A DNA stretch of 64,000 bases from an uncultured Enterobacteriaceae bacterium (GTDB taxonomy: Bacteria; Pseudomonadota; Gammaproteobacteria; Burkholderiales; SG8-39). The position numbers were made by a program, and so were the translations under genes. The DNA lies in NCBI GenBank assembly GCA_964565875.1, contig CAZMGP010000022.1, positions 1,648 to 65,647 of the forward strand, written 5' to 3'. The stretch's first letter is position 1. The number at the start of each line of letters is the position of its first letter. The notes under the pieces are model-generated. The model had not been told where the DNA came from. It made no database searches and saw only the letters and a program-made list of their open reading frames with translations. Positions 49,633-64,000 of this stretch are shown piece after piece.

Positions 49633-50334
49633 TTAACTGGCGAGCTCGAATCCCGCCTGCGCGCGCAAGGCGCGCGAGCGGTCGCCCGCAAGCAGCGCGA
49701 TCAGGCGCCGTGCGGCGTCGGGGCTCGCGGCGCCGGTGCAGACGCCTGCGGTATACACGGTCGCGAGTTCGAATTCGCGCGGCAGCGAGCCGGCGAGCAC
49801 GACGCCGGGCGTACTGTTGATTTCCGTGATCTGGGTGCAGCCGATCTGGCGCCCGCCCGCTGTGCGCGCCAGCTCGCTCATGGCGGTGTTTCCGTTGGGG
49901 TAGGTGCGCAAGCGTCCGGCGACTTCGCTGCGGATACCGAGCGCCTCGAGCACCCGTGCGAAATGGATGCCGGCGGTGGCTTTCTGCGTGTCGGGCGTGA
50001 AGATGCCGTCTGCGGCAAGCAGCGCACGGCGCAGACCGTCCGCGCTCGCGATGTCGGGCACGGTGTCGCCGGCGCGCACGGCGACACCGGTGCGCACGCG
50101 GCCCAAATCGGCGCCGCTTTGCGGCATCACGTGGCCGCACGATTCCAGTTCTTCGATCAAGGCGCGGGTGAGGATGACCAGATCGGCGGCGGCGCCGCCC
50201 AGGAGTTGGGCTTTCATCGCGCCCACGGCGTTAAAACTGCATTCGAGGGCGTAACCGGTGTCGGCGCGGAATTCCTCGGCAAGTGCGGTCACGACGCTCT
50301 TAGCAGCGCCTCCGCTCAAAATCTTCAACCGCAT
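49633..50334 (-). CDS. ModA-like (molybdate/PBP2-fold) substrate-binding-domain protein without a signal peptide
   Basis: 233 aa starting MRLKILSGGAAKSVVTALAEEF, with no leader. It overlaps the upstream molybdo-enzyme gene by 35 nt. Confidence 0.7.
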   Translation of the reverse strand: MRLKILSGGAAKSVVTALAEEFRADTGYALECSFNAVGAMKAQLLGGAAADLVILTRALIEELESCGHVMPQSGADLGRVRTGVAVRAGDTVPDIASADGLRRALLAADGIFTPDTQKATAGIHFARVLEALGIRSEVAGRLRTYPNGNTAMSELARTAGGRQIGCTQITEINSTPGVVLAGSLPREFELATVYTAGVCTGAASPDAARRLIALLAGDRSRALRAQAGFELAS

Positions 50335-52507
50335 TTATTCTCTCCCTTGATGAATCTTGTTCCGCCGCCGCGAGGATGCGCTCGGGCGTGATCGGCAGAT
50401 CGCGCACGCGCACGCCCAAGGCGTCGAACACCGCGTTGGCGATGGCAGCAGCAGTCGGTCCCTGCGCCGCTTCGCCCGCGCCTACTGCAGGCTCGTCCGA
50501 CCGCGCGACCAGCTCTACCTCGACTGCAGGCACCTCCGCAAAGCGCAGGATGGGATACTCGTCCCAGGAGTCGCTGGTGACGCGCCTGCGGTCGAAGCGA
50601 ACCTGCTCTTTCAGCGTCCAGCTCGCCGCCTGGATCGCGCCGCCTTCGATCTGGTTCGCCACGCCGTCCGGGTTCACCACCAGGCCGACGTCGACCGCGA
50701 CTACGACTCGCTCGACCCGGATTTCGCGCCCGGCTTCGATTTCCGCGATCACGGCGCAATAGGCGCCGCTTCCCTTGTAACGGGCGAAGCCGATGCCGTG
50801 CCCGCGGCCCTCGCGCTTCTTCCATCCGCTCCAGCCCGCGCGCCGCGCCGCGCATTCTATCACCTCGCGCGCGCGGACATCCGCAGTGAGACGCAGCCGC
50901 AACGCGAGCGGATCGTCGCCGCGCGCAGCCGCGAGTTCGTCTATGAAGGACTCAATTGCGAACACGTTGGCGTAAGCCCCGAGCGAGCGCAGCGCCGAGG
51001 TGCGCAGCGGCATGCCGAGCAATCTGTGGCTCGCGATGCGGTAGGCTGGCAGCTCATATAGAGGCAAGGCATTGCGCTCGGCGCCGCCGCCCGCTGCCGT
51101 CGGCGGATTGATCGATAGCGTGCGCTCGAAGGCTTGAGCAAGTTGTCCTGCCGCAAGCAGCACGGGTACGGCAGCACGCCCCGGGCGACTGGAATGGCCA
51201 TTGCTCCAAACCTCATGGCGCCAGGCGAGGATTTCGCCGCGCGCATCGAGATCGGCTTCAATTTCGACGGCCATGGCCGGACCGAAGGGCGTCCAGGCGA
51301 GCTCGTCCGCACGCGACCAGACGAGCTTCACCGGGCGGTCTCCCGCTGCGCGCGCGAGCAGCGCGGCATCGAGCGCGACGTCGTCGGCACCGTTGTGGCC
51401 GTAGCAGCCTGCGCCCTGCCTATGTTCGACTACGATCTGCTCGCGCGGCAGCCTGAACGCGAGCGCGAGATCGGTGCGCAGATTGTAGATGCCCTGGCTG
51501 TGGCTATAGACGTGCAGGCGCTCGCCCTGCCATTGCGCGACGGCGCAGGAAGGCGCAAGCGAGGCATGCGCGAGATAAGGCCGGCTGTAGCGGGCTCGCA
51601 CGGTGCGCGCGACGCCTGCGTTCGATTCGGCTGCGCGCTCGGCGATGAGCTTGGTTTCCAGCGCTTGCGCTTTCAGCCAATCGCCGAGAGCTGCGGCATC
51701 CGGCAGCGTATCCGTTTCCTCCCAGGTCGCGGCGGCGCGCAGGACCTCCAACGCCTTCAAGGCCAGCTCTTCCCTTTCGGCAAGCACGCCGACGAAGCTG
51801 CCGTCGCGCACGAGGCCAGCGACGCCGGGGAGGGCAAGGACGGTCGCTTCGTTTAGGGAGATGAGCTTTGCGCCGGGGGAGGGCGGACGCAGCACCCGCG
51901 CGTGCAGCATGTGCGGCAGTTCGAGATCGTGCACGAACACGGGCAATCCGTACACCTTGGGCGCGAGATCGAGCCGTTCGATCGAGCTTCCCACGATGCG
52001 ATGCTCAGCAGCATTCTTCGGCGCGACACGCGCCGTCGCTTCGCGCTCGAGCAGGGCATCGTCGGCGAGCTCGGCATAGCTGGTGCGCGCGCCTGACGAA
52101 GAAAGGATTACGCCGTCTTCGACAGTTAGTCCTTCGACCGCGACGCCGAGCTTCGCCGCGGCGGCATCGAGATAGATCGCACGCGCCTCGGCGCAGGCAT
52201 AGCGCAGCGCCGTTCCCGACTCCTGCACCGACAGGCTACCCGAAGTCACGGCTTCGTCCGGGCTTGTCGCGGTGCTCGCGGGCAGCATGCGGATGCGCTG
52301 GATGCCGACGTCCAGCTCTTCCGCCGCAATCTGGGCGAGCGCGGTGGCGATGCCTTGGCCGAGCTCCACCTTGCCCGAGCGCACTTCGACGTTGCCGTCG
52401 CTGCGAAAGCGCAGCCATTGCGCCAGGCGTCGATTGACCTGCAGGCTGCCCGGTAGTCGCGGCAACTCGCCTTCCTTCCCCGTGGCGAGGCGATAGGCGA
52501 GGTTCAT
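50300..52507 (-). CDS. Molybdopterin-binding subunit of a xanthine-dehydrogenase-family oxidoreductase (IorB / aldehyde oxidase beta-like)
   Basis: 735 aa. The layout is IorB-like: N-terminal VELGQGIATALAQIAAEELDV, then GAGCYGHNG, with C-terminal GAGEAAQGPTAAAIANAVFDALG. It overlaps the 2Fe-2S subunit gene by 4 nt. Confidence 0.85.
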   Translation of the reverse strand: MNLAYRLATGKEGELPRLPGSLQVNRRLAQWLRFRSDGNVEVRSGKVELGQGIATALAQIAAEELDVGIQRIRMLPASTATSPDEAVTSGSLSVQESGTALRYACAEARAIYLDAAAAKLGVAVEGLTVEDGVILSSSGARTSYAELADDALLEREATARVAPKNAAEHRIVGSSIERLDLAPKVYGLPVFVHDLELPHMLHARVLRPPSPGAKLISLNEATVLALPGVAGLVRDGSFVGVLAEREELALKALEVLRAAATWEETDTLPDAAALGDWLKAQALETKLIAERAAESNAGVARTVRARYSRPYLAHASLAPSCAVAQWQGERLHVYSHSQGIYNLRTDLALAFRLPREQIVVEHRQGAGCYGHNGADDVALDAALLARAAGDRPVKLVWSRADELAWTPFGPAMAVEIEADLDARGEILAWRHEVWSNGHSSRPGRAAVPVLLAAGQLAQAFERTLSINPPTAAGGGAERNALPLYELPAYRIASHRLLGMPLRTSALRSLGAYANVFAIESFIDELAAARGDDPLALRLRLTADVRAREVIECAARRAGWSGWKKREGRGHGIGFARYKGSGAYCAVIAEIEAGREIRVERVVVAVDVGLVVNPDGVANQIEGGAIQAASWTLKEQVRFDRRRVTSDSWDEYPILRFAEVPAVEVELVARSDEPAVGAGEAAQGPTAAAIANAVFDALGVRVRDLPITPERILAAAEQDSSRERINAVEDFERRRC

Positions 52508-52992
52508 GCTTCGGCCTGCGCCGTCATGTCCGCGGCGCGCAGCACCGCGCGCACGATGCGGTTATGCGCACCACAGCGGCACAGATTGCGATCGAGCGCG
52601 GTGCGTACCTCGGCCTCGCTCGGTTTGGGATTTTCCGCGAGCAGCGCCGCCGCGCTGATGAGTATGCCGGGCAGGCAATAGCCGCACTGACCCGCCTGTT
52701 CGGCGATCAAGGCGCGCTGCAGTGGATGCGGCCGCGCGGGGTCGCCGAGACCCTCGACGGTGGTGATCTCATGCCCTACTGCCGACCACAGCGGCGTGTC
52801 GCAGGAGGCGACGGCGCGGCCGTCGAGCAGCACGCGGCAGGCGCCGCAGGCGCCGCTGCCGCAGCCGAAATGCGCCGCCTTCAGGCCGAGATCGTTGCGC
52901 AGCACATAGAGCAGCGGCGTGTCCGCGGCCGCGTGCACCTCGTGCACGGAGCCGTTGACCCTGAGTCGGAAGCTGGCGGGCGCCTGTTCCAC
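52504..52992 (-). CDS. (2Fe-2S)-binding small subunit of the molybdo-oxidoreductase (IorA-like)
   Basis: 162 aa. Cluster I is GCGSGACGACRV. Cluster II is QCGYCLPG...CRCG. Confidence 0.92.
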   Translation of the reverse strand: MEQAPASFRLRVNGSVHEVHAAADTPLLYVLRNDLGLKAAHFGCGSGACGACRVLLDGRAVASCDTPLWSAVGHEITTVEGLGDPARPHPLQRALIAEQAGQCGYCLPGILISAAALLAENPKPSEAEVRTALDRNLCRCGAHNRIVRAVLRAADMTAQAEA

Positions 52993-52996
52993 AGCC

Positions 52997-53965
52997 TCAA
53001 TCCACTTTGGCGCCGGAGATCTTCACCACCTTCGCCCACTTGGCGATGTCTTCGAGCAGGTACTGCCCGAACTCCTCGGTGCTCATGCTCATCGGCGCCG
53101 CACCTTGCTTGGCCCAGGCGTCCTTCACCTCGGGCGTGTTCACGATTTTGCGAATTTCCGCGTTCAGGCGCTCGACGACGGCCTTAGGCGTCGCTACCGG
53201 GGCCATGACCCCGAGCCAGATCACCGCTTCGTAGCCGGGGACACCTGCTTCGGACACCGTCGGCACTTCGGGCAGCACGGGCGAGCGCACTTTGCCGGTG
53301 GTGCCGAGCGCTTTCAGCTTTCCCGCATGCACGTTCGATGCCATGGTGGTGATGGCGTCGAACATCATCTGCACCTGGCCGCCGAGCACGTCGGTGCGCG
53401 CGCCGGAACTGCCCTTGTACGGTACATGAACGATGTCGAGGCCGGCCATCGCCTTGAACAGCTCGCCCGCCATGTGATAAGGCGTACCGGGGCCGGAAGA
53501 GGCGTAGTTGAGAACATGCGGCTTAGACTTTGCGAGCGCGATGAGTTCCTTCAGGTTGTTCACCGGCACCGAAGGGTGGACCACCAGCACCAGGTCGGAA
53601 TAGTTCACCGGTGCGACGGGAACGAAATCGCGCATGAGCTGGAACGGCTTGTTCGAGATCAGCGATTCGTTCACGGTGTGGGTGTTCGACATCATCAGCA
53701 GCGTGTAGCCGTCCGGAGCCGCTTTTGCCACGGCGTCGGTGCCGAGCAGCGAGCCGCCCCCGGGACGATCCTCGATGACGAAGGGCTGGCCCAGCGCCTC
53801 CTGCAGGCGCTGGCCGATGAAGCGCGCATAGATATCGGCGGGGCCGCCGGCCGCGAAGGGCACGATGATGCGCACCGGGTGGCTCGGATAGTTCTGCGCC
53901 CAGGCGGGCAGGCCCGCCAAAGCCCAGACGGCGAACGCGAGTATGCCGCGTACGAAATGACGCAT
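52997..53965 (-). CDS. Bug/TctC-family substrate-binding protein
   Basis: Start at MRHFVRGILAFAVWALAGLPAWA (ATG 53963-53965, AAGGAGGAGGA RBS). The signature is YPSHPVRIIVPFAAGGPADIYARFIGQRL...FVIEDRPGGGSLLG. Confidence 0.9.
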   Translation of the reverse strand: MRHFVRGILAFAVWALAGLPAWAQNYPSHPVRIIVPFAAGGPADIYARFIGQRLQEALGQPFVIEDRPGGGSLLGTDAVAKAAPDGYTLLMMSNTHTVNESLISNKPFQLMRDFVPVAPVNYSDLVLVVHPSVPVNNLKELIALAKSKPHVLNYASSGPGTPYHMAGELFKAMAGLDIVHVPYKGSSGARTDVLGGQVQMMFDAITTMASNVHAGKLKALGTTGKVRSPVLPEVPTVSEAGVPGYEAVIWLGVMAPVATPKAVVERLNAEIRKIVNTPEVKDAWAKQGAAPMSMSTEEFGQYLLEDIAKWAKVVKISGAKVD

Positions 53966-54056
53966 GATTTCCTCCTCCTTTTTTCTTTCGTGCCGCGCAG
54001 CGGGCGCGGTCCGGCTTTGTAGCATAGGCCGTCGCCTTGCGTCCAGCGAGGCCGAA

Positions 54057-54734
54057 TCAATGCCGCGACAGGGGTTGGCGCGAGGCGAGGCTGTGGGCGT
54101 AGCGCGTGGTCTGCGGCAGGCGGTAGCGGGTGACGCAGGCCATGGTCAGCCTGACGGCTCTCTCCAGGCTCACGCGATGGCCGCAGGAGACGTAAATCGG
54201 GTTCACCCCCGCGCGGCTGCGCAGCACGGCGCCGATGGTCTCGTCTGCATCGGTGAGCGCCGCCCAGCGGCCGCGCGTCGCGGGAACTCTGCCGTGTTCG
54301 CCGATGAGCCGGCTTTTCCCCACGCCGATCGCGGGCAAGCCGGTGTAGACACCGAGATGGCAGGCGATGCCGAAGCGGCGCGGGTGGGCAATGCCGTGGC
54401 CGTCGACGAGGAGCAGGTCGGGCTTCTTCTTTAGCTTCGCCAGCGCGGCGAGGATGGCGGGGATTTCGCGAAACGACAGCAGTCCCGGCACGTAGGGAAA
54501 GCGCGTGGGCAGTCGGGCGATGGCTTGTTCCAGCGGCTCGAGTGCGGGGAAGGCGAGCACGACGACCGCTGCCCGGGTGATCGCGCCGCCGTGGTCGAAG
54601 CCGACGTCGATCCCGGCCACGCGGCGGATCGTGCCGAAGCGGTCCTCTGTCACCACCCGGCGGCGTAGCCGTTGCTGCAGGGCGATCGCCTCTTTCGGCG
54701 TCAGCTCCCATGCGTGCGCGAGCGCCATTGCCAC
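54057..54734 (-). CDS. nfi: Endonuclease V (deoxyinosine 3' endonuclease)
   Basis: Nfi motifs are present: [23 protein letters not shown] and [22 protein letters not shown]. The start is GTG 54734 or ATG 54728. The gene directly abuts the upstream stop. Confidence 0.9.
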
Positions 54735-55907
54735 TTAGGCCTGCGCAAGCACCAAGGGTACGTACATCTCGGCCGCGCTCACGCCGCCGTGCACGCCGAT
54801 AGTGAGGTGGCGCGCCTCGCCCAGCACCCAGTCCTTGATGGTGTAGTCCTCCTTCATCACCAGCAGGTAGTCGCCGATGCGCTCGGCAAGTCGCGGATTC
54901 GCCTCGCCCAGTCCGAACCAGCCTTGGGAAATCGCATCGCACGCGGGGACGAGCTCCGCGCAATGCGCGAGCCGTGTCGCGACATAGTGTTCGAAGGCAC
55001 GCTGCGCTCCGGCGCGCAGATAGCAATAGGCGACGCGGCGCTCGCCGCACAGCGGCAGTGCGAGCGTCTCGACGAGTTGTGGATGGTCGGCAAGCTCGAT
55101 GCTCGCCGACTTCGGCGAATCGACGAAGCCGTGGTCCGCGACCGCGAGCACCAGGGTATCGGTGCCCGCGATGTCGGCGAGAAAGGCGGCATAGGCCGCG
55201 TCGATCTGCTGGAACATGCTCGCGAGCTCGGCGCTCGCGACGCCGAAAGTGTGCGCGGCAGCGTCGATCTCGTAAGTGTAGGCGTGGACGAACTTGCGCG
55301 CGCCACCTGCGCGCAGGATTTCGGCGGTCTTGGAGAACAGTTCGGGCCAGGTCTTGTAGGGGCAGCGCCGCGCGACGCCGCAGTGGGCGACGTTGTAGTC
55401 CGATTCGATGATGGTTTCGGGCGATACGACATAGGTTTCCGTCGGCAGGCGATCGAACATGGGCTCGGCGGTATAGATCTCGCGCGGCGCGATCCGTGCT
55501 TTGGACAAGGCCTCGCCGCCATGCCGCGGGCGAAAGCGCAGCGTCGCCGCGATCGTGCCCAACTCGCGCAGCCACATATGCCAGCCGGTAAGCCCGTGCT
55601 GCTGCGGCGCGAGGCCGGTGAGGAAGCTCGTCACCGCCGTCGCCGTGGTGGGAGGAAACACCGAACTCATGCGCGCGACCAGGTGCCGCCGGAGCGCGCT
55701 ATCCGCGCCGGTCGTGGTGAGATAGTCGTAGCCCAGGCCGTCGATCACGAGCAGTACCACGTTCTTCGCCCGCGTGAGACGCTCTTGCGGTAGGGCGACG
55801 AGCTCCGGGTAGAGCTCGGCACCGACGCAAGACCGCGCGCCGAGCGCCAATTCGATCGAGCGCATCAGGTTGACGATGCTCGCGCCGCGATAATCGGGAA
55901 GATGCAT
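54735..55907 (-). CDS. Alkaline-phosphatase-superfamily protein (type I phosphodiesterase / nucleotide pyrophosphatase-like), cytoplasmic
   Basis: 390 aa with no signal peptide. The metal/nucleophile region is VVLLVIDGLGYDYL...FPPTTATAVTSFLTG. A distal ADHGF motif is present. Confidence 0.75.
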   Translation of the reverse strand: MHLPDYRGASIVNLMRSIELALGARSCVGAELYPELVALPQERLTRAKNVVLLVIDGLGYDYLTTTGADSALRRHLVARMSSVFPPTTATAVTSFLTGLAPQQHGLTGWHMWLRELGTIAATLRFRPRHGGEALSKARIAPREIYTAEPMFDRLPTETYVVSPETIIESDYNVAHCGVARRCPYKTWPELFSKTAEILRAGGARKFVHAYTYEIDAAAHTFGVASAELASMFQQIDAAYAAFLADIAGTDTLVLAVADHGFVDSPKSASIELADHPQLVETLALPLCGERRVAYCYLRAGAQRAFEHYVATRLAHCAELVPACDAISQGWFGLGEANPRLAERIGDYLLVMKEDYTIKDWVLGEARHLTIGVHGGVSAAEMYVPLVLAQA

Positions 55908-56002
55908 GCCTGGCGGCGCTGCGGAATTCGAGTTCGTACTTGAACCCGCGGGCGCCCAACCCCATTTGAGCTGCAGATGGGTAAAATTGTACAGGAGCCG
56001 CG

Positions 56003-56857
56003 ATGACTACTTACTCGTTCGAAACCGGGACCGAAGCCTTCGAGCGCGACGTGCTGGAAGCGTCGAAGAAGGTGCCGGTGCTGGTCGATTTCTGGGCGCC
56101 GTGGTGCGCACCTTGCCGGGCGCTGAAACCGATCCTGGAAAAGCTTGCTGCCGAGTATCAGGGAAGATTTCTGTTGGCGAAGCTCAATTCGGACGAGCAT
56201 CCGCAGCTCGCCGCGCGCTTCGGCGTGCGCGGCATTCCGAACGTGAAGGCCTTCGTCGACGGCGAACTCGCCGACGAGTTCACCGGCGCATTGCCCGAGA
56301 GCGGCGTTCGCACCTTCATCGATCAACTGATCCCGACACCGGGGGAGAAGTTGCGCCGCGCCGCGCGCAACTTAATCGCCCAGGGCGATTTCGACGAAGC
56401 CGAGCGCCACCTGCGCAGCGGCCTGGAACTCGAACCGGCGAACCGCGCAGTGCGGCTTGACTTGGTCGAACTGTTGCTGGCGAAGAACAGCCAGGCCGAG
56501 GCCGACGCGGTATTTGCGCCGATTCCCGAGCGCGAGCGCGATGAGCGCGCCGACCGTCTGTACTCGGTGCTCGAACGTTGGAAGAAAAGTCAGGCGCTGC
56601 CCGGCATGGACGAACTGCTGGCGCGGCTAGCGGCGAATCCGGCGGACCAGCCGTCCCGGCTGGCTCTGGGCGAGCGGCTGATCGCCGAGCGGCGCTACGA
56701 AGACGCGCTTGCCGCCCTGCTCGAGGTGGTGCAAGCCGACCGCGGCGCGCTGCGCACCAACGCACGCAAGCTCATGGTCGAGGTGTTCGCTCTCGCGGCC
56801 GACCAGCCCGAACTCGTCGGCCGCTATCGGCGGCTGCTCGCCGGCGCGCTTTACTGA
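56003..56857 (+). CDS. Thioredoxin-domain + TPR co-chaperone (YbbN/CnoX-like) with an intact CxxC
   Basis: 284 aa. The Trx fold reads VLVDFWAPWCAPCRAL...GIPNVKAF. The C-terminal half is helical and TPR-like. Confidence 0.85.
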   Translation: MTTYSFETGTEAFERDVLEASKKVPVLVDFWAPWCAPCRALKPILEKLAAEYQGRFLLAKLNSDEHPQLAARFGVRGIPNVKAFVDGELADEFTGALPESGVRTFIDQLIPTPGEKLRRAARNLIAQGDFDEAERHLRSGLELEPANRAVRLDLVELLLAKNSQAEADAVFAPIPERERDERADRLYSVLERWKKSQALPGMDELLARLAANPADQPSRLALGERLIAERRYEDALAALLEVVQADRGALRTNARKLMVEVFALAADQPELVGRYRRLLAGALY

Positions 56858-57207
56858 ACCTGAACCGGAACGGACAGCTCTTCGAACGCCCCCAGAGCGT
56901 CGGCCGCGTACATCAGCGACGGCCCGCCGCCCACGTACACGCTCATGCCCAGCGCCTCTTCCACTTCGGCGCGACTGGCGCCGAGCTTGACCAGCGCCTG
57001 CATGTGGAAGCCGATGCAGGCGTCGCAGTGCGCGGCGACGCCCAAAGCGAGGGCGATCAGCTCCTTGGTCTTGCGGTCGAGTGCGCCGTCGCGCGTCGCG
57101 GCTTGAGCGAGCGCGGAAAATCCCTTCATCGTATCCGGCGTATCGGCGCGCAATTTCGCCATCGAGGCGGACACACGCTTGGTGATCTCGCGGTAATTCT
57201 TGCTCAT
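56851..57207 (-). CDS. Carboxymuconolactone decarboxylase / AhpD-like family protein
   Basis: Start at MSKNYREI (ATG 57205-57207). The AhpD core motif LIALALGVAAHCDACIGFH contains a CxxC. The product is 118 aa. Confidence 0.85.
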   Translation of the reverse strand: MSKNYREITKRVSASMAKLRADTPDTMKGFSALAQAATRDGALDRKTKELIALALGVAAHCDACIGFHMQALVKLGASRAEVEEALGMSVYVGGGPSLMYAADALGAFEELSVPVQVQ

Positions 57208-57214
57208 GTTCGCC

Positions 57215-57418
57215 TCAGGCCTTGCCCTTTGCCTGCGCCGGGCAGGTGTCGATGCCGAGCAGGGTGTAGAGCGGGCAGAACTTGATCGTGCCCGTGGCGA
57301 GCGGAATGATCCCGATCCAGCCCCAGGCGCCCACCGTGCCGGTCGCGGCCAGCGCGACCAAGGCGATTCCGACGACGATGCGCAGCGCGCGATCGATGCC
57401 ACCGACATTGAGTTTCAT
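57215..57418 (-). CDS. DUF2892 (YgaP-type) small membrane protein
   Basis: Start at MKLNVGGIDRALRIVVG (ATG 57416-57418, AAGGGAG RBS). It has two TM helices and a C-terminal KFCPLYTLLGIDTCP. It lies 7 nt upstream of the AhpD-like gene. Confidence 0.75.
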   Translation of the reverse strand: MKLNVGGIDRALRIVVGIALVALAATGTVGAWGWIGIIPLATGTIKFCPLYTLLGIDTCPAQAKGKA

Positions 57419-57476
57419 GGATGCTCCCTTCACTTATGGATGATAGAAATGGATTGTTTGTTCGGGGACGCGCCTG

Positions 57477-58022
57477 TCACGGCTTGGACGCGGCGCGCAC
57501 CCGGGCGAGTTTTCCTTCGAGCGTGGACTCGCTCAACGCGCCGAGGTGGGTGTCGACCATGCGGCCGTTCGCGTCATAGAAGAGCGTGATCGGCAGCGCG
57601 GTCGAGCCGAGTTCGCGGCCGAGCTTGCTCGCGGGGTCGAGCATGACGTTGGAAAGTTCGAGCTTCGCGCTGGACAAATAGCGCGTTACGGTGGCCGCGT
57701 CCTCGCCCTGGTCGACGAAAACGAAGTTCATCGCCGCTTCGCGCTGCTGAGCGGCCGCCAGGGTCGGCAGTTCGCGCCGGCAGGGCGGGCACCAGGTGGC
57801 CCATAGGTTCACCACCGTGGGCTTGCCTGCGGCGAGCGTCGCCAGTTCCGCGGCTGATCCGCCGAGGGTACGCAAGGAAACCTGCGGCAGGGCCTGGTTC
57901 TGCATCAAGCGCAAGGCGGCGGACAGGCCGAACCAGGTGAAAAGCGCCGCCGCAAGGCCCAGCGCGAGCGGTTTGCCCCAGCCAAAGCCCTTTGCTGGAA
58001 CTTCGGGTGCCACTTCGCTCAT
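57477..58022 (-). CDS. TlpA/ResA-type periplasmic thiol:disulfide oxidoreductase (membrane-anchored redoxin)
   Basis: Start at MSEVAPE (ATG 58020-58022), overlapping the arsR-family stop as ATGA. It has one N-terminal TM helix and the motif VVNLWATWCPPCRRELP. Confidence 0.88.
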   Translation of the reverse strand: MSEVAPEVPAKGFGWGKPLALGLAAALFTWFGLSAALRLMQNQALPQVSLRTLGGSAAELATLAAGKPTVVNLWATWCPPCRRELPTLAAAQQREAAMNFVFVDQGEDAATVTRYLSSAKLELSNVMLDPASKLGRELGSTALPITLFYDANGRMVDTHLGALSESTLEGKLARVRAASKP

Positions 58023-58396
58023 CCCTTCGTCACCGCAGGCTTGCGCCGCGGTGTGGCGGCAGCGAGGAACAGTTCGTGCCGGTCCGACTGGCCGGCGTAG
58101 CGCTTGCCGATCTGGCCGCAGACGAGATCGCACAGGCGATAGATTTTTGGATCGGCAATGCGGTAATAGGTACTGGTGCCGCGGGCGGCCTTCTCGATCA
58201 ACCCGCCCTGGGCGAGCAGCGATAGATGTTTGGATACGTTCGCCTGGCTGCAGCCGAGCAGTTCGGTGAGCTCGCTCACGTTGCGCTCGCCGTCGCGCAG
58301 CGCATTCAATATCTTCAAGCGCAGCGGCACCGACAGCGCGCGGAAATAACCGGCGACGTCATCCAGTGCGCGATCGTCCAATCGCTCCATAAGCAT
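58019..58396 (-). CDS. ArsR/SmtB-family transcriptional regulator with three cysteines
   Basis: The winged HTH reads LSVPLRLKILNALRDGERNVSELTELLGCSQANVSKHLSLL. A C-terminal LCDLVC pair is present. Start candidates are 58396, 58390 and 58423. Confidence 0.85.
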   Translation of the reverse strand: MLMERLDDRALDDVAGYFRALSVPLRLKILNALRDGERNVSELTELLGCSQANVSKHLSLLAQGGLIEKAARGTSTYYRIADPKIYRLCDLVCGQIGKRYAGQSDRHELFLAAATPRRKPAVTKG

Positions 58397-58444
58397 GCAT
58401 CCTTCTCTGGTGACAGGGTTCATACTATACCAGACAAATGGTGA

Positions 58445-58496
58445 TTGACAATATAACCATATAGCGATATAGTAGCACCGATGGTTGCAATTGTCA
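58445..58496 (+). promoter_or_regulatory. Near-consensus sigma70 promoter of the efflux operon, embedded in a long imperfect palindrome (candidate ArsR operator)
   Basis: TTGACA (58445-58450), a 17-nt spacer, then TATAGT (58468-58473). The arms are TGACAATATAACCAT (58446-58460) and ATGGTTGCAATTGTCA (58481-58496). They share the outer TGACAAT/ATTGTCA and inner AACCAT/ATGGTT symmetric blocks. Confidence 0.65.
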
Positions 58497-58560
58497 CGGA
58501 CTTTGTTGATTTGCCGCAAGGGGCGAGCGTCGCGCGCCCGACCGGCAAGGGAGAAAACGG

Positions 58561-59598
58561 ATGAAGGTATTACCGAAACTGGCGCTCGCCGCGCTGCTCG
58601 CGCATTCCGTCTGGGCGGCCGCGGCCGAGCTCGAGACCGCGCCGGTGCAGGCGGCGGGGGCGAGCGACGTGTATGCGGCGGACGGCGTGCTCGAAGCCGT
58701 GCGCCAAAGCGTGATCGCGGCGCAGGTCGCCGGGCGCATCACCGATCTCAGGGTGAAGGCGGGCGACGTGGTGAAGGCGGGCCAGGTGCTCGCGCGCGTG
58801 GACGAACGCGTGGCGGCGCAGCAGGTTAGCGCGAGCCGGGCGATGGTCGCGGCGGCTGAAGCGCAGCTCGATGCAGCGAAGCGCGAATACGCGCGCAGCC
58901 AGAGGCTCTACGGCAAGCAGTATCTCAGCCAGGCGGCCCTGGAGCAGGCCGAGGCGCAATACAAGGCGACCGAGGCCCAAGTGCGCGCGACGCTCGCCCA
59001 GGCCGGCATGGCGAGCACGCAGACTTCCTTCCATACCATTGTCGCGCCCTACGCCGGGGTGATCGCCGAAGTCAGCTGCGAACTGGGCGACATGGCGGCG
59101 CCGGGCAAGCCCCTCATGCGCCTCTACGATCCGGCGGCGCTGCGCGTAGTGGTGACGCTGCCTGAAAGCACTGCGCCCGCGCTCGCGGCAGGCAAGCCGA
59201 CCAAGCTCGAGTTTCCCGGCGCCAACGAGGCGCTGCGCTGGCAGACGGCGCAATCGACGACGCTGCTGCCGACCGCCGACCCGACGAGCCATACACTGCA
59301 GGTGCGCGCGACGCTCGCCCCCAAGCTCGCCGGCCTGACGCCCGGAATGTTCGCCCGCGCCTATCTCCCGGTAAGCGCGGCTCAGGGCGGGCGCATCACC
59401 GTCCCGGCGAAGGCCGTGGTCATGCGCACCGAACTCAACGCCGTGTACGTCGTGAACAACGAAGGGCGGGCGCAATTGCGCCAGGTGCGCCTCGGCCGCC
59501 AGGTGGGCGAGCGCGTGGAAGTCCTGGCCGGACTGGAAGCGAATGAGCGCGTCGCGCTCGATCCGGTGGCGGCGGCGAAGCAGGGCGCCGCGAAATGA
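58561..59598 (+). CDS. Efflux RND periplasmic adaptor (membrane fusion protein, HlyD family)
   Basis: 345 aa with a signal peptide. The layout is a barrel-sandwich/lipoyl segment, a coiled-coil hairpin (AEAQLDAAKREYARSQRLY...AQYKATEAQV) and a beta-barrel. Confidence 0.9.
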   Translation: MKVLPKLALAALLAHSVWAAAAELETAPVQAAGASDVYAADGVLEAVRQSVIAAQVAGRITDLRVKAGDVVKAGQVLARVDERVAAQQVSASRAMVAAAEAQLDAAKREYARSQRLYGKQYLSQAALEQAEAQYKATEAQVRATLAQAGMASTQTSFHTIVAPYAGVIAEVSCELGDMAAPGKPLMRLYDPAALRVVVTLPESTAPALAAGKPTKLEFPGANEALRWQTAQSTTLLPTADPTSHTLQVRATLAPKLAGLTPGMFARAYLPVSAAQGGRITVPAKAVVMRTELNAVYVVNNEGRAQLRQVRLGRQVGERVEVLAGLEANERVALDPVAAAKQGAAK

Positions 59599-62500
59599 GC
59601 GAGCGCAGCGAACTCGGCATTTCCGGCCGCATCGCGCGCGCCTTTCAGAGCGCGCAGATCACGCCGCTGCTCGCGCTGGTGGCGCTGCTCCTCGGTGTGT
59701 TCGCCGTATTGGTGACCCCGCGCGAAGAAGAGCCGCAGATCAACGTCACCATGGCGAACGTGTTGATTCCGTTCCCCGGCGCCTCGGCGCGCGACGTCGA
59801 GCAGATGGTCGCCGGGCCGGCGGAGCAGGTGCTGTCGCAGATCGCCAACGTCGAGCACGTGATGTCGCTCGCGCGACCCGGGCTCGCCGTAGTCACGGTG
59901 CAGTTCGAAGTCGGCATCACGCGCACCGAGGCGCTGGTGCGGCTATACGACACCATCGAATCAAACCGCGACTGGTTGCCGGCCAATCTGGGCGTGCTGC
60001 ATCCGGTGGTGAAGCCCAAGGGCATCGACGACGTGCCCATCGTGACCTTGACGCTGTATTCGAAGAATCCCGCCATCGGCGCGTTTGATCTCGAGCGCGT
60101 CGGGCATTCGATCGAAGCCGACATCAAGCGCGTCCGCGGCACGCGCGAAGTCGTCACCCTGGGTGGCGCCAGACGCGCGGTCAACATTCGCCTCGATCCA
60201 GGGCGCATGCATGCCGCCGGCGTCACCGTGAGCGATCTGCGCCGGGCCCTGCAATCGGCCAACATGGGCGCGACGCTGGGCGAGACCATCGAGAACGACC
60301 GCGCCATCACCGTCGATTCCGGGCCCTTCCTCGAATCCGCCAAGGACGTGGCGAGCCTGGTGGTCGGCGTGCACGAAGGCAAGCCCGTTTTCCTGCAGGA
60401 TGTCGCCGAAGTGAAGGACGGCGCGGTGTCCGCCGAGCGCTACGTCTGGCACGGCATCGCCGGCAAGGGCGGCGGCGAATACCCGGCGGTGACGCTCGCC
60501 GTGACCAAGAAGCCGGGTCAGAACGCGGTGCGCGTGGCGGATCAGGTGATCCAGCGCGTCGAGGCGCTGAAGAACGCGGTCGTCCCCGCGGACGTCGAGC
60601 TCGCCGTGACGCGCAACTACGGCGCGACCGCGAACGACAAGGCGCTGAAGCTGATCGAGAAGCTCGTCTTCGCTACGGCGCTGGTGATTGCGCTGGTGTT
60701 CTTCGCCCTCGGCCGGCGCGAAGCGGCGATCGTCGGATCGGCGGTGGTGCTGACGCTGACGGCGACGCTGTTCGCCTCCTGGGCCTGGGGTTTTACCCTC
60801 AACCGGGTGTCGCTGTTCGCGCTCATCTTTTCCATCGGCATCTTGGTCGATGACGCCATCGTGGTGGTGGAGAACATCCATCGCCACATGCTGCTCGAAC
60901 CGGAGAAGCCGCTCGCCGACATCATTCCCGGCGCGGTGGACGAGGTCGGCGGTCCGACCATCCTCGCCACTTTCACCGTCATCGCGGCGCTCCTGCCCAT
61001 GGCCTTCGTCAGCGGCCTGATGGGGCCGTACATGAGTCCGATCCCCATCAACGCCAGCATGGGCATGATGATTTCGCTCACCGTCGCCTTCGTCGTCACG
61101 CCTTGGCTTGCGCGGCTGTGGCTGAAGCGCTCGGCGCACGCCGCGGCCGGCGGCCTGGCGGCGAAGCTCGCCCCGTTTTTCATCCGCGTGTTCACGCCCT
61201 TCCTCGATGACGCCCATGGGGGAAGGCGGCGGCTGGCGCTGTGGGCGGGCGTGGGCGTGCTGATCCTCGCCTCGGTGGCGCTGCCTGCGGCGAAATGGGT
61301 GGTGCTGAAAATGCTGCCCTTCGACAACAAGTCCGAATTCCAGGTGGTGGTCGACATGCCCGCAGGCACGCCGGTGGAGCGCACCGCGACGCTGCTGCAC
61401 GAGCTGGGTGCCTACCTCGCCGGTGTGCCCGAGATCACCGACTACCAGGCCTATGCGGGCTTGTCCGCGCCGATCAATTTCAATGGCCTGGTGCGCCAAT
61501 ACTACATGCGCTCCGGCGGCGACCTGGGCGATATCCAGGTAAACCTGGTGGACAAGGCGCATAGGAGCGAGCAAAGCCACGCCATCGCGCTGCGGCTGCG
61601 GCCCGATTTGGCGAAAATCGCGGCCGCCTACCACGCGCGGCTGAAGCTCGTCGAAGTGCCGCCTGGCCCGCCCGTGCTCTCACCCATCGTCGCCGAGGTC
61701 TACGGACCGGACTACGCCGGCCGCAGGAGCGTGGCAAGCGCCGTGCGCAAGGTGTTCGATACCACGCCCGGCGTGGTCGACGTCGACCAGAGCACGGTCG
61801 CCGCGACGCCGCGTCAGGTGCTCCTCGTCGATCGGCGCAAGGCGGCGCTCGCTGGCGTCGCGCAAGGGGAAATCGTCGCGGCGCTGCGGGCTGGGCTCGC
61901 GGGCGAGGACGTGACCTACCTGCACGATGCGACCAAGTACCCGGCCGGCACGCACCTCGAGCTGCCGGTCGCTTCCCGCGCCAATCTCGACGACGCGCTG
62001 CGGCTCACCGTGCGCAGCACGAGCGGTCAGCTCGTGCCGCTGCGCGAGCTCGTCTCCGTGCGCGACTCCGTGGTCGAACAGCCGATCTACCACAAGGACC
62101 TGCTGCCCGTGATCTACGTGACGGGCGACATGGCGGGCGGGGAGGACAGCCCCCTGTACGGCATGTTCGAAATGCGCCGCGCCATCGGGGAGATTCCGGT
62201 CCCGGGCGGCAGGCTCGGCGAGCATTTCATCGGCCAGCCAGACGATCCCTATCGCGGCTACGCCATCAAATGGGACGGCGAGTGGCAGATCACCTACGAG
62301 ACGTTCCGCGACATGGGCGCGGCCTACGCCGTCGGCCTGGTGCTGATCTATCTGCTGGTGGTGGCGCAGTTCGGCTCCTATCTCGTGCCGCTCATCATCA
62401 TGGCGCCGATTCCGCTCACCATCATCGGCGTGATGCCCGGCCACGCCCTGCTCGGCGCGCAATTCACCGCCACCTCGATGATAGGCATGATCGCGCTCGC

Positions 62501-62807
62501 CGGCATCATCGTGCGCAACTCCATCCTGCTGGTCGACTTCATCAAGCTGCAGGTCGCGAGCGGCACGCCGTTCAAGGAAGCCGTTGTGCGCTCCGCCGCC
62601 ATCCGCGCGCAGCCGATCGCACTCACTGCGCTCGCCGCCATGCTCGGTGCCTTGTTCATCCTGGACGACCCCATATTCAACGGATTGGCGATTTCGCTGA
62701 TATTCGGGATCCTCGTTTCGACCATTCTCACCCTGGTCGTGATCCCGCTGCTTTACTACGCCGCGTACCGGCATCAATTTACCCAACCCACGGAGGAAAT
62801 ATCGTGA
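59595..62807 (+). CDS. Efflux RND permease (AcrB/HAE-type, 12 TM)
   Basis: 1070 aa. The TM4 motif is SIGILVDDAIVVVENIHRH. Two large periplasmic loops are present. Its start overlaps the MFP stop as ATGA. Confidence 0.92.
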   Translation: MSERSELGISGRIARAFQSAQITPLLALVALLLGVFAVLVTPREEEPQINVTMANVLIPFPGASARDVEQMVAGPAEQVLSQIANVEHVMSLARPGLAVVTVQFEVGITRTEALVRLYDTIESNRDWLPANLGVLHPVVKPKGIDDVPIVTLTLYSKNPAIGAFDLERVGHSIEADIKRVRGTREVVTLGGARRAVNIRLDPGRMHAAGVTVSDLRRALQSANMGATLGETIENDRAITVDSGPFLESAKDVASLVVGVHEGKPVFLQDVAEVKDGAVSAERYVWHGIAGKGGGEYPAVTLAVTKKPGQNAVRVADQVIQRVEALKNAVVPADVELAVTRNYGATANDKALKLIEKLVFATALVIALVFFALGRREAAIVGSAVVLTLTATLFASWAWGFTLNRVSLFALIFSIGILVDDAIVVVENIHRHMLLEPEKPLADIIPGAVDEVGGPTILATFTVIAALLPMAFVSGLMGPYMSPIPINASMGMMISLTVAFVVTPWLARLWLKRSAHAAAGGLAAKLAPFFIRVFTPFLDDAHGGRRRLALWAGVGVLILASVALPAAKWVVLKMLPFDNKSEFQVVVDMPAGTPVERTATLLHELGAYLAGVPEITDYQAYAGLSAPINFNGLVRQYYMRSGGDLGDIQVNLVDKAHRSEQSHAIALRLRPDLAKIAAAYHARLKLVEVPPGPPVLSPIVAEVYGPDYAGRRSVASAVRKVFDTTPGVVDVDQSTVAATPRQVLLVDRRKAALAGVAQGEIVAALRAGLAGEDVTYLHDATKYPAGTHLELPVASRANLDDALRLTVRSTSGQLVPLRELVSVRDSVVEQPIYHKDLLPVIYVTGDMAGGEDSPLYGMFEMRRAIGEIPVPGGRLGEHFIGQPDDPYRGYAIKWDGEWQITYETFRDMGAAYAVGLVLIYLLVVAQFGSYLVPLIIMAPIPLTIIGVMPGHALLGAQFTATSMIGMIALAGIIVRNSILLVDFIKLQVASGTPFKEAVVRSAAIRAQPIALTALAAMLGALFILDDPIFNGLAISLIFGILVSTILTLVVIPLLYYAAYRHQFTQPTEEIS

Positions 62808-63013
62808 CATCCTGGCAAATCGTCCGCGTATTCGCGGGCAGCTTCATCGCAATCTCGCTTCTGCTCGGCGCGCCTGCGAGCCCGCTGTTCGTCAGCCAAT
62901 ACTGGCTGCTGTTCACGGCGTTCGTCGGCCTGAACCTGCTGCAAAGCGGCTTTTCCTGCTGGTGCCCGCTCGAGATCGTGCTGCGCAAGCTCGGCGTGCG
63001 CGCCGGCACTTGA
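62804..63013 (+). CDS. DUF2892 (YgaP-type) small membrane protein embedded in the efflux operon
   Basis: The GTG start (62804) overlaps the RND stop as GTGA, with a GGAGGA RBS 6 nt upstream. The 69-aa product has two TM helices and a C-terminal SCWCPLEIVLRKLG. It is the in-frame tail of ORF 62270..63013. Confidence 0.7.
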   Translation: MTSWQIVRVFAGSFIAISLLLGAPASPLFVSQYWLLFTAFVGLNLLQSGFSCWCPLEIVLRKLGVRAGT

Positions 63014-63036
63014 ACTCGGCGCAAGGGATCGGGCGC

Positions 63037-63477
63037 ATGGATGCGGCGAGCATCAACCTGGTCTGCCCGGCGTGCGGCGTGAAGAACCGCGTGCTCGAAG
63101 CGCGGCTCGATCAGGCTCCGAGCTGCGGCCGCTGCAAGGCCGCGCTCCTGACCGCGAGTCCGCTTGCGCTCGAAGAGGCGGCGTTCACCCGCTACATCGA
63201 AGGGACCGAATTGCCGGTGGTGGTGGATTTCTGGGCGGATTGGTGCGGACCGTGCAAGTCGATGGCGCCGGCTTTTGCCGAGGCCGCGCGATTGCGGCCG
63301 CGCGTGCGCTTCGCCAAGCTCGATACCGAGCGCGCCGGCAGCATCGCGGCGCAGTATGGCATCCGCAGCATCCCCACCCTGATCGCCTTTCGCGGCGGCC
63401 GGGAAATCGAGCGCATCTCCGGTGCCATGGGCTCGCAACAGATCCTCAGTTGGATAGATCGGACGCTACAGTCATGA
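63037..63477 (+). CDS. trxC: Thioredoxin 2 (TrxC-type, N-terminal zinc finger)
   Basis: Start at MDAASINLVCPACGVKN (ATG 63037). The zinc finger is CPAC...CGRC. The Trx motif is VVVDFWADWCGPCKSM, with IRSIPTLIAF. Confidence 0.9.
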   Translation: MDAASINLVCPACGVKNRVLEARLDQAPSCGRCKAALLTASPLALEEAAFTRYIEGTELPVVVDFWADWCGPCKSMAPAFAEAARLRPRVRFAKLDTERAGSIAAQYGIRSIPTLIAFRGGREIERISGAMGSQQILSWIDRTLQS

Positions 63478-64000
63478 AAAAAGCGCAATTCGCAAGCTGT
63501 GTCTTGGCCGCGGCCAGCCTCGCCGTCCTCGGCTCCGCGTCTGCGGCAGACGACTTGCTCGGAGCTTGGCGCGCGGCGCAGACGCACGATCCGGCTTTCG
63601 CCGCGGCGCGGGCGGAGTGGGACGCCGGTCGCACCAAGTCGCGCCAAGGCCGCGCGCTGCTCGCGCCCAACGTCGCCGTCTCGGGATCAGTCGGCTATCT
63701 TTACAGCGATCGCGACACCCGCGGCGCGCAGTTTTCCGCGCCCGGTTTCGGCGCGGCGAACGACGCCCAATTCCGCTCCAAGATCGACGGCGGGCAGGCG
63801 AGCTCGGTCGGCGTGCTCGCGCGCCAACCCATTTACAACGCCATGTTGAGCGCCTCGGCGAGCCAGCTCGAGCGCCAGGCGCAGTTGGCCGACGTGCGCT
63901 TCGCCGGCGCGCGCCAGGAGTTGATCCTGCGCACGGCGCAGGCCTACTTCGCCCTTCTCGCGGCGAACGATGCCCTCGCGACCCTGCAGGCGCAGAAGAA
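63474..64000 (+). CDS. TolC-family outer-membrane efflux protein, N-terminal part (runs off the window end)
   Basis: The ATG at 63474 overlaps the trxC stop as ATGA. The signal peptide is MKKAQFASCVLAAASLAVLGSASA. The typical OMF opening follows: DLLGAWRAAQTHDPAFAAARAEWDAG...AQAYFALLAANDAL. Confidence 0.85.
   Translation, partial: MKKAQFASCVLAAASLAVLGSASAADDLLGAWRAAQTHDPAFAAARAEWDAGRTKSRQGRALLAPNVAVSGSVGYLYSDRDTRGAQFSAPGFGAANDAQFRSKIDGGQASSVGVLARQPIYNAMLSASASQLERQAQLADVRFAGARQELILRTAQAYFALLAANDALATLQAQK

Follow-up and report, generated by a model that had tools for sequence, protein, structure and literature searches.

A tripartite RND exporter with a DUF2892 partner in a probable reactive-sulfur stress locus of an uncultured bacterium

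Research on sulfide and sulfane-sulfur homeostasis is advancing rapidly. Bacterial sensors of sulfane sulfur (SqrR, BigR, and CstR) and the enzymes that handle it (sulfide:quinone reductase, SQR; persulfide dioxygenase, PDO; and rhodanese) are known, but no exporter of sulfane or elemental sulfur has been defined. We analyzed a locus at positions 56,003 to 64,000 of a 64,000-nucleotide stretch of DNA (the window) from an uncultured Enterobacteriaceae bacterium (GTDB lineage SG8-39; assembly GCA_964565875.1, contig CAZMGP010000022.1). Here, the genes for a tripartite RND efflux pump share an operon with those for a small DUF2892 membrane protein (DUF2892b) and a thioredoxin 2 (TrxC), divergent from the gene for an ArsR-family repressor. 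The locus is probably a stress module for reactive sulfur (sulfide and sulfane sulfur) in which a dedicated tripartite RND exporter is the central element.

The nearest described counterpart is the Azospira suillum PS operon Dsui_3440-3443, which encodes an unknown protein, an RND permease, an SQR, and a membrane fusion protein (MFP); it was flagged by Bar-seq, and its expression rises with H2S from a log2 value of ~1-4 to ~8.6-10.6 (PMC5358917). Its MFP, RND permease, and small unknown protein are ordered as in the window. Unlike the window, it carries a type I SQR gene between MFP and RND and is described as a four-gene operon without TrxC, TolC, or methyltransferase. Elsewhere in the Azospira genome, the stand-alone DUF2892 gene Dsui_0042 gives a transcript that ranks with the most plentiful and is ~10-fold up with H2S, which also induces an alkylhydroperoxidase (PMC5358917). 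For many bacteria, a survey from the Dahl laboratory found RND genes adjacent to SqrR-type regulators with two Cys, R. capsulatus SqrR itself among them (PMC12423496, Table S1). These two studies were the only relevant ones in a literature search for a characterized DUF2892-RND or SQR-RND system. The first reading of the window (hereafter the initial annotation) took the architecture to be undescribed; this holds insofar as neither study analyzes the pump or its DUF2892 partner, but the H2S-induced MFP-SQR-RND-unknown operon and the SqrR-RND adjacency were already on record. A regulon responsive to reactive sulfur species with a tripartite RND pump is a known kind of system, whose adjacency to SqrR-type regulators had already been observed. 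Not yet described are the obligate pairing with DUF2892, the link to TrxC, and the CxxxC type of regulator.

RND systems with small extra pump-specific proteins include AcrAB-TolC with AcrZ, MexGHI-OpmD with MexG, and CusCFBA with CusF. DUF2892b is unrelated to these three proteins, having two helices, an invariant Cys, a thioredoxin alongside, and a putative binding to its pump. In the BigR/SqrR/YgaV regulons (R. capsulatus SqrR, Xylella BigR, and E. coli YgaV-YgaP), as in the window, an ArsR-family repressor is divergent from or adjacent to sulfur-detoxification genes. YgaP, the partner of YgaV, has a DUF2892 as its membrane domain, whereas DUF2892 in the window stands alone, without a rhodanese domain; unlike BigR/SqrR, the window ArsR lacks the α2 cysteine and carries a CxxxC motif within α5. 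The Staphylococcus aureus cst operon also has a persulfide-responsive repressor over SQR, sulfurtransferase, and PDO genes (PMC9995734), but it is a Gram-positive system with neither an RND pump nor a DUF2892 partner, and its repressor is CstR where the window has ArsR.

Anchoring on the RND subfamily, we scanned 185,579 species genomes and kept 80 loci with an RND permease 61-75% identical to the window's. The loci, to which the counts below refer, were annotated by tblastn, by clustering of neighboring open reading frames (ORFs), and with hidden Markov models (HMMs) made from those clusters. An MFP homolog lies 5′ of the RND gene in 74 of the 80 loci, and a DUF2892b-type gene directly 3′ of it in 63 of the 76 that have downstream DNA; the top DUF2892b and RND matches also fall on contigs of coinciding size (for example, 31479, 138716, and 95522). 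By gene neighborhood, DUF2892b is a dedicated, near-obligate partner of this RND subfamily. TrxC was found in 22 loci, TolC in 20, an ArsR-family gene in 36, and a CsoR/CstR-like gene in 11. The exact order of the window, with arsR divergent from MFP-RND-DUF2892b-TrxC-TolC, recurs in at least six cases (L006, L013, L016, L022, L029, and the separately found L085), with 4-nt overlaps like those of the window, and is thus conserved beyond this strain, as the initial annotation had proposed to establish by genome search. Overlapping stop and start codons are also present in L085 and L094.

Genes of sulfur metabolism recur around the pump. Type I SQR forms the largest non-pump neighbor cluster (24 of the 80 loci; E = 3e-182 to A. 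ferrooxidans SQR). Its gene lies between MFP and RND in L039, L042, L046, L050, L052, L054, L066, and L073, and after TolC in L004, L011, L014, L018, L022, L024, and L028. Rhodanese is found in 13 loci and a PDO-like metallo-β-lactamase-fold protein (MBL) in six; glutaredoxin and OsmC genes are recurrent as well. The regulators at the pump loci are of three types: group A ArsR, as in the window; canonical BigR/SqrR homologs, which occur in many loci and retain the two sensing cysteines (E = 7e-22 against BigR and 4e-21 against SqrR); and CstR-like regulators in place of ArsR (C..C, no-His pattern; 11 loci). That two unrelated families of persulfide sensors occupy the same position by the same pump is a strong functional pointer.

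The association extends to distant relatives with an RND permease 42-43% identical to the window's. On plasmid pISP1 of Sphingomonas sp. MM-1 (L086; 43%), rhodanese-MFP-RND-ArsR genes are divergent from genes for an SQR-like protein, DUF2892, TolC, and a carboxymuconolactone decarboxylase (CMD). A Paracoccus denitrificans replicon carries genes for PDO-like MBL, DUF2892, YeeE, and sulfurtransferase, then ArsR, then DUF2892-MFP-RND; a Pseudanabaena plasmid carries DUF2892, SQR-like, ArsR, rhodanese, MFP-RND, and DsbA genes. Legionella and Vibrio plasmids have only the RND-DUF2892 pairing (with ArsR also present in Legionella). As judged by homology, the RND-DUF2892 pair thus lies in or beside SQR, rhodanese, and PDO-like operons across Alpha-, Beta-, and Gammaproteobacteria and in a cyanobacterium. 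Two of the plasmids with RND-DUF2892 are conjugative, pISP1 (MOBQ/MPF_F) and the Legionella pneumophila plasmid L089 (MOBF/MPF_F), an IS21 element adjoins the system in Legionella, and an integrase gene adjoins it in L018; the module is therefore horizontally mobile. We also note that cydAB-cydX, a DUF2202 gene, and a TlpA-family gene sit directly beside the Sphingomonas system (L086:11189-13177). Cytochrome bd oxidase is sulfide-insensitive.

The Azospira operon probably belongs to the same family. The 20-nt deletion primer PS_SQR_b matches five metagenome contigs exactly, three of them beside RND-DUF2892b. In those three, it lies ~70 nt outside the stop codon of a DUF2892b gene (FCP motif) that overlaps, by ATGA, the gene for an RND permease 63-65% identical to the window's. 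The two other contigs, L090 and L091, have no pump or DUF2892 gene, and their 20-mer matches are probably due to chance in so large a collection. The MFP-SQR-RND-DUF2892b order of the Rhodocyclales loci L052, L054, and L066 is identical to Azospira's. Because of the primer match beside RND-DUF2892b and this identical order, we infer that Dsui_3440 is DUF2892b and that Dsui_3441 is a member of this RND subfamily. The initial annotation had left redox, reactive-sulfur, and metalloid stress side by side as the purpose of the export module. The SQR, rhodanese, and PDO-like MBL genes, the BigR/SqrR and CstR-like regulators, and the H2S induction in Azospira are our reasons for choosing reactive sulfur among the three; the redox block that the annotation had also drawn does not stand as one unit (see below).

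Gene calls in the window were made from the ORF list together with Pfam and NCBIfam scans (Table 1). These and a direct reading of the sequence agree with all gene calls, CxxC motifs, and junction positions of the initial annotation: the ATGA overlaps of MFP/RND (59595-59598) and TrxC/TolC (63474-63477); the GTGA overlap of RND/DUF2892b (62804-62807), which has a GGAGG 8 nt upstream; the four CxxC proteins; two DUF2892 proteins, both above the PF11127 cutoff of 25.3 bits; an ArsR with three cysteines (Cys49, Cys89, and Cys93); and the divergent minus-strand order arsR-tlpA-DUF2892a-ahpD-like, from 58396 down to 56851. On that strand, the tlpA-like gene likewise overlaps the arsR stop codon by ATGA (58019-58022), which indicates translational coupling. 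Gaps of 7 nt and 23 nt separate DUF2892a from the CMD gene and DUF2892b from TrxC, respectively. The CnoX-like gene (plus strand) and the AhpD-like gene (minus strand) are convergent, with a 7-nt overlap of their 3′ ends that includes the stop codons (56851-56857).

Table 1. Features of the locus, with window coordinates, strand, and supporting matches
Feature	Coordinates	Strand	Support
CnoX/YbbN-like thioredoxin-TPR protein	56003-56857	+	Thioredoxin + TPR_19/TPR_20; WCAPC
AhpD-like/carboxymuconolactone decarboxylase (CMD) CxxC protein	56851-57207	-	PF02627 77 bits; TIGR00778; CDAC
DUF2892a, YgaP-like transmembrane protein, F-C-P motif	57215-57433	-	PF11127 84.7 bits
TlpA/ResA-like thiol:disulfide oxidoreductase, N-terminal membrane anchor, periplasmic	57477-58022	-	Redoxin + AhpC-TSA; WCPPC
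ArsR/SmtB-family repressor, group A	58019-58396	-	NF033788 81 bits (cutoff 55)
Divergent promoter/operator region, 164 bp	58397-58560	.	Sigma-70-like sites, candidate operators
MFP periplasmic adaptor, first plus-strand operon gene	58561-59598	+	TIGR01730 212.6 bits (cutoff 94.9); HlyD_D23
RND permease	59595-62807	+	PF00873 (ACR_tran) 479 bits, full length, residues 22-1056
DUF2892b, 69 aa, two-helix membrane protein	62804-63013	+	GTG start; PF11127 36.3 bits (cutoff 25.3); SCWCP
TrxC (thioredoxin 2)	63037-63477	+	NF008229 136.6 bits (cutoff 125); PF21352 36.6; PF00085 94
TolC-type outer-membrane channel, 5′ part (cut by window end)	63474-64000	+	PF02321 (OEP)

A full-length ACR_tran domain and adjacent MFP and outer-membrane channel genes with overlapping start and stop codons mark the pump as a tripartite RND system, and the Asp-Asp of transmembrane helix 4 is visible in the sequence (VDDAIVVVEN). 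The permease does not join the HAE1 multidrug type (best NCBIfam RND score 442 bits against a cutoff of 1250; AcrB 161 against 2150) or the HME heavy-metal type (CusA/CzcA model TIGR00914, 231 bits against 701; ZneA structure, 175 bits), and the nearest solved RND structure in the PDB scores only 227 bits. Because it falls below every curated model and is distant from solved structures, the RND permease represents, on these scores, a distinct, uncharacterized subfamily outside both the HAE1 multidrug and the HME metal types. The subfamily is large: We found more than 8000 homologs, the best 120 listed being at least ~68% identical and mostly from Betaproteobacteria. The NolG/NFE family was considered owing to many hits on Sinorhizobium plasmids and was set aside, as ~25% identity marks generic RND matches. 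We also sought RND-DUF2892 fusions among the longer homologs and found none: P0086 is a frameshift extension and P0027 an assembly duplication. In the latter (1241 aa), ~170 N-terminal residues are duplicated internally, probably as an assembly artifact and not as a domain gain.

The DUF2892b family is also large (more than 5000 clusters matched), and its Trp53-Cys54, where the second transmembrane helix is predicted to reach the cytoplasm, is invariant. Pro55 is present in at least 90% of the sequences, the additional Cys52 of the window protein is not constant, and further C-terminal cysteines occur in many relatives. The AlphaFold2 model (pLDDT 69) has transmembrane helices at residues 3-21 and 32-50 and a short amphipathic helix at 55-62; when the positive-inside rule is applied to these helices, Cys54 and both termini are predicted to be cytoplasmic, which is the TrxC side. 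TrxC itself has the N-terminal zinc ribbon (CPAC..CGRC) and the WCGPC active site visible in its sequence, and thioredoxin reduces persulfides and polysulfides (as cited in PMC9995734). The TrxC gene is directly 3′ of RND-DUF2892b in 12 loci.

These data can also be read without any redox role for the small protein: DUF2892b would be a pump accessory with a structural or regulatory role, as AcrZ is for AcrB, or a small independent channel, with TrxC as a co-regulated general reductant. Small RND accessory proteins such as AcrZ and MexG are known, TrxC is far less frequent than DUF2892b (22 of 80 loci vs. 63 of 76), and no fusion or other direct sign of a relay was found. We consider this account improbable, given that the single invariant residue pair of DUF2892b is a Trp-Cys at the predicted cytoplasmic membrane face. 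Moreover, TrxC directly follows DUF2892b in most TrxC loci, even where the pair precedes MFP-RND (L033, L049, and L057); DUF2892b-rhodanese-glutaredoxin-TrxC strings exist (L037 and L058); and E. coli YgaP is a rhodanese-DUF2892 fusion, in keeping with the Pfam family name.

The regulator does not fit the two-Cys sensor type of BigR/SqrR. That type has a conserved α2 "LxC" and a C-terminal α5 "FC," which form an intraprotomer tetrasulfide; in the window ArsR the position of BigR Cys42 is Asn (ILNAL vs. LVCTL), and the BigR model NF040642 gives 43 bits against a cutoff of 155. Among its three cysteines, only Cys89 and Cys93 are conserved, as a CxxxC within an invariant LCDLVC of α5, preceding the canonical α5 Cys position by one and two helical turns; Cys49 is not conserved. 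A group A CxxxC ArsR is divergent from MFP-RND in 23 loci and heads SQR-containing operons in eight of the 23. CmtR-like Cd/Pb sensing was considered for the CxxxC motif and rejected, the score being far below the cutoff (48 bits vs. 150). The cysteine pair of CmtR lies in the recognition helix and not in α5.

Strong sigma-70-like sites occur within the 8 kb only in the divergent intergenic region. The plus-strand promoter consists of TTGACA (58445-58450), a 17-nt spacer, and TATAGT (58468-58473), and the minus-strand promoter overlaps it; a weaker match (9/12) is found in the tlpA-DUF2892a gap (57453-57480). Candidate operators were obtained by comparing k-mers across 24 intergenic regions. 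Most of the other group A regions have a TATTTGC..GCAAATA repeat between -35 and -10, whereas the window and L018, both with the differing recognition-helix sequence SQANVSKHL, have CCATATAGCGATA(T/G)AGT at the candidate operator position. The window's CCATATAGCGATATAGT (58457-58473), between -35 and -10, is found again in L018. A search of the intergenic region for inverted repeats gave only weak ones.

Several of these features bear on resistance to metal(loid)s or chalcogen oxyanions (As(III), tellurite/selenite, or Cu/Ag/Cd) as an alternative function. The CxxxC of ArsR would bind the metal(loid), the pump would export the ion or its thiol conjugate, TrxC would give reducing power, and a TehB/TPMT-like methyltransferase (MT1, see below) would volatilize the metal(loid). 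The regulator does belong to the ArsR/SmtB metalloregulator family, with its weak CmtR match; the MFP scores against the CzcB/NccB and CusB models; MT1 matches TehB, TPMT, and MduS; AhpD-like domains are found in ArsM fusion selenoproteins; and SQR/PDO mutants change selenite reduction in P. putida, so that sulfur and selenium pathways overlap. Nevertheless we judge a metal(loid) function unlikely. The metal models are far under cutoff (besides CusA/CzcA and CmtR, TehB with 42 bits vs. 218); no ars, czc, cop, or ter genes are among the 45 largest neighbor clusters of the 80 loci (at least five loci each; some of the clusters annotated), where the recurrent neighbors are SQR, rhodanese, and PDO-like genes and persulfide-sensor families; MT1 is present in only three loci; and the inducer in Azospira is H2S.

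The downstream end of the operon was read from metagenome contig L001, which was found via TrxC and is identical to the window DNA. The full TolC is 460 aa and is followed in the same operon by two S-adenosylmethionine-dependent methyltransferase genes (L001:2132-3318), the start of the first overlapping the TolC stop codon. The nearest relative of MT1 (217 aa) is Synechocystis Slr1183, followed by plant thiol methyltransferase 1 (E = 2.5e-9) and TehB; its homologs near the system are those of L011, L023, and L069. The second, MT2, is a UbiE-like methyltransferase. Both genes sit in the slot after TolC where relatives such as L022 carry SQR. MddH, an H2S/MeSH methyltransferase, belongs to the UbiE family (PMC11445057), and an MddH-like role for these methyltransferases may be considered, as a lead only. 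L085 has MT2 and lacks MT1; its TolC is called as two pieces of 250 and 190 aa (L085:6589-7954), which may point to a frameshift, a pseudogene, or a misassembly.

The minus-strand genes are less constant companions. The TlpA-like protein scores under cutoff with each of the ResA, DsbE, and TlpA models. DUF2892a, which the DUF2892b HMM misses, belongs to a different subfamily, and has relatives near the system in L018, L024, L026, L027, L046, and L053; CMD genes are near it in L011, L023, and L078. The whole set tlpA-DUF2892a-CMD is absent from L085, the closest relative examined (RND 86% identical). Though sporadic in the 80 loci, CMD and TlpA are shown not to be random companions by their recurrence at the Sphingomonas pISP1 locus. 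In L010 (Giesbergeria anulus; L010:13298-13606) a CMD gene, its product 63% identical to the window's, lies between RND and TolC in place of DUF2892b, a possible functional substitution.

By a rough estimate based on general knowledge, a group of 11 genes with two DUF2892 proteins, three CxxC proteins of the thioredoxin fold, and one AhpD-like CxxC protein is far above typical genome density; the comparative data are the real test. The four CxxC proteins, proposed as a block, do not pass it as one conserved unit. CnoX is found in none of the 80 genome loci and is adjacent only in the window and in L085, where it adjoins arsR; it is probably a neighbor and not part of the system. The proposed block combines a core that is conserved (RND-DUF2892b, in some loci with TrxC) with AhpD-like, TlpA, and DUF2892a genes that occur sporadically and with CnoX, which is probably incidental.

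A dense group of thioredoxin-fold and AhpD CxxC proteins would also suit an island for general oxidative stress or for HOCl or electrophile stress, in which the pump exports oxidized thiols, quinones, or peroxidized lipids, the thioredoxin-fold proteins and AhpD repair proteins, and the sulfur genes of relatives reflect overlapping redox regulons. CnoX is of the chaperedoxin type, some relatives have OsmC and peroxiredoxin genes nearby, and in Azospira H2S also induces the alkylhydroperoxidase. However, neither CnoX nor TlpA is conserved alongside the pump, its conserved partners are DUF2892, SQR, and rhodanese and not peroxidases, and the regulators of the locus belong to persulfide-sensing clades. 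We regard such an island as very unlikely.

Upstream of the locus (50300-55907), the translations alone indicate molybdenum and 2Fe-2S subunits of the xanthine-dehydrogenase family, a Bug-family periplasmic receptor, endonuclease V, and an alkaline-phosphatase-family protein; these genes appear unrelated to it. An Rfam scan of 55800-64000 matched no RNA family, and terminator-like hits in the 8-kb region (nine) show no excess over shuffled sequences (5.6 ± 2.8).

A number of observations weigh against a reactive-sulfur module. Deletion of the Azospira operon left the rate of H2S oxidation unchanged (PMC5358917), so the pump is dispensable for oxidation itself. The window has no SQR, PDO, or rhodanese gene within its 64 kb, and the sulfur link for this strain therefore depends on relatives. 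The ArsR lacks the canonical SqrR/BigR Cys pair and could use its CxxxC for metal(loid) binding; MT1 is similar to enzymes of the TehB/TPMT type, which have links to tellurite and selenium. In 13 loci the pump occurs without DUF2892b, and a sensitive HMM search for a divergent DUF2892b in 14 such loci found none. No Cys is invariant across the RND homologs, and the RND sequence gives no pointer to a substrate; any covalent sulfur chemistry would have to reside on the DUF2892b partner. Contact between DUF2892b and the RND permease, and a redox relay from TrxC to DUF2892b, are purely what we infer.

If the locus is a reactive-sulfur module, it might work as follows. In the unstressed state, the ArsR-type repressor would occupy an operator between the -35 and -10 elements of the divergent promoters; modification of Cys89/Cys93 by sulfane sulfur would release it from the DNA. 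The pump would take zero-valent sulfur (polysulfides, S8, or persulfide adducts, as made by SQR) from the inner membrane or periplasm and pass it out via TolC. DUF2892b would be an accessory subunit on the membrane domain of the pump, with Cys54 collecting or sensing sulfane sulfur at the cytoplasmic face, and cytoplasmic TrxC would re-reduce this Cys by depersulfidation or disulfide reduction. This strain would use its two small-molecule methyltransferases in place of SQR, perhaps methylating sulfide or thiols, and the arsR-tlpA-DUF2892a-ahpD genes may contribute periplasmic and membrane thiol repair. The most specific version, that RND-DUF2892 is the missing Gram-negative route for zero-valent sulfur out of the envelope, with the DUF2892b Cys as a loader or sensor recycled by TrxC, is one we hold tentatively and find rather doubtful.

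A very large RND subfamily, with thousands of homologs on chromosomes and conjugative plasmids, is wired into sulfane-sulfur regulons and has never been characterized; in this we count the RND genes adjoining the founding R. capsulatus sqrR. The pump family most likely serves reactive-sulfur disposal and not drugs or metals, and caution is called for in annotating its members as multidrug or cation efflux pumps. With the pump as a concrete candidate for a sulfane-sulfur export route, the function of DUF2892/YgaP-type proteins and the exit of sulfur from the cell become testable problems. If the proposed mechanism is true, the system would be an RND exporter assisted by covalent chemistry, a mode without precedent in any RND system.

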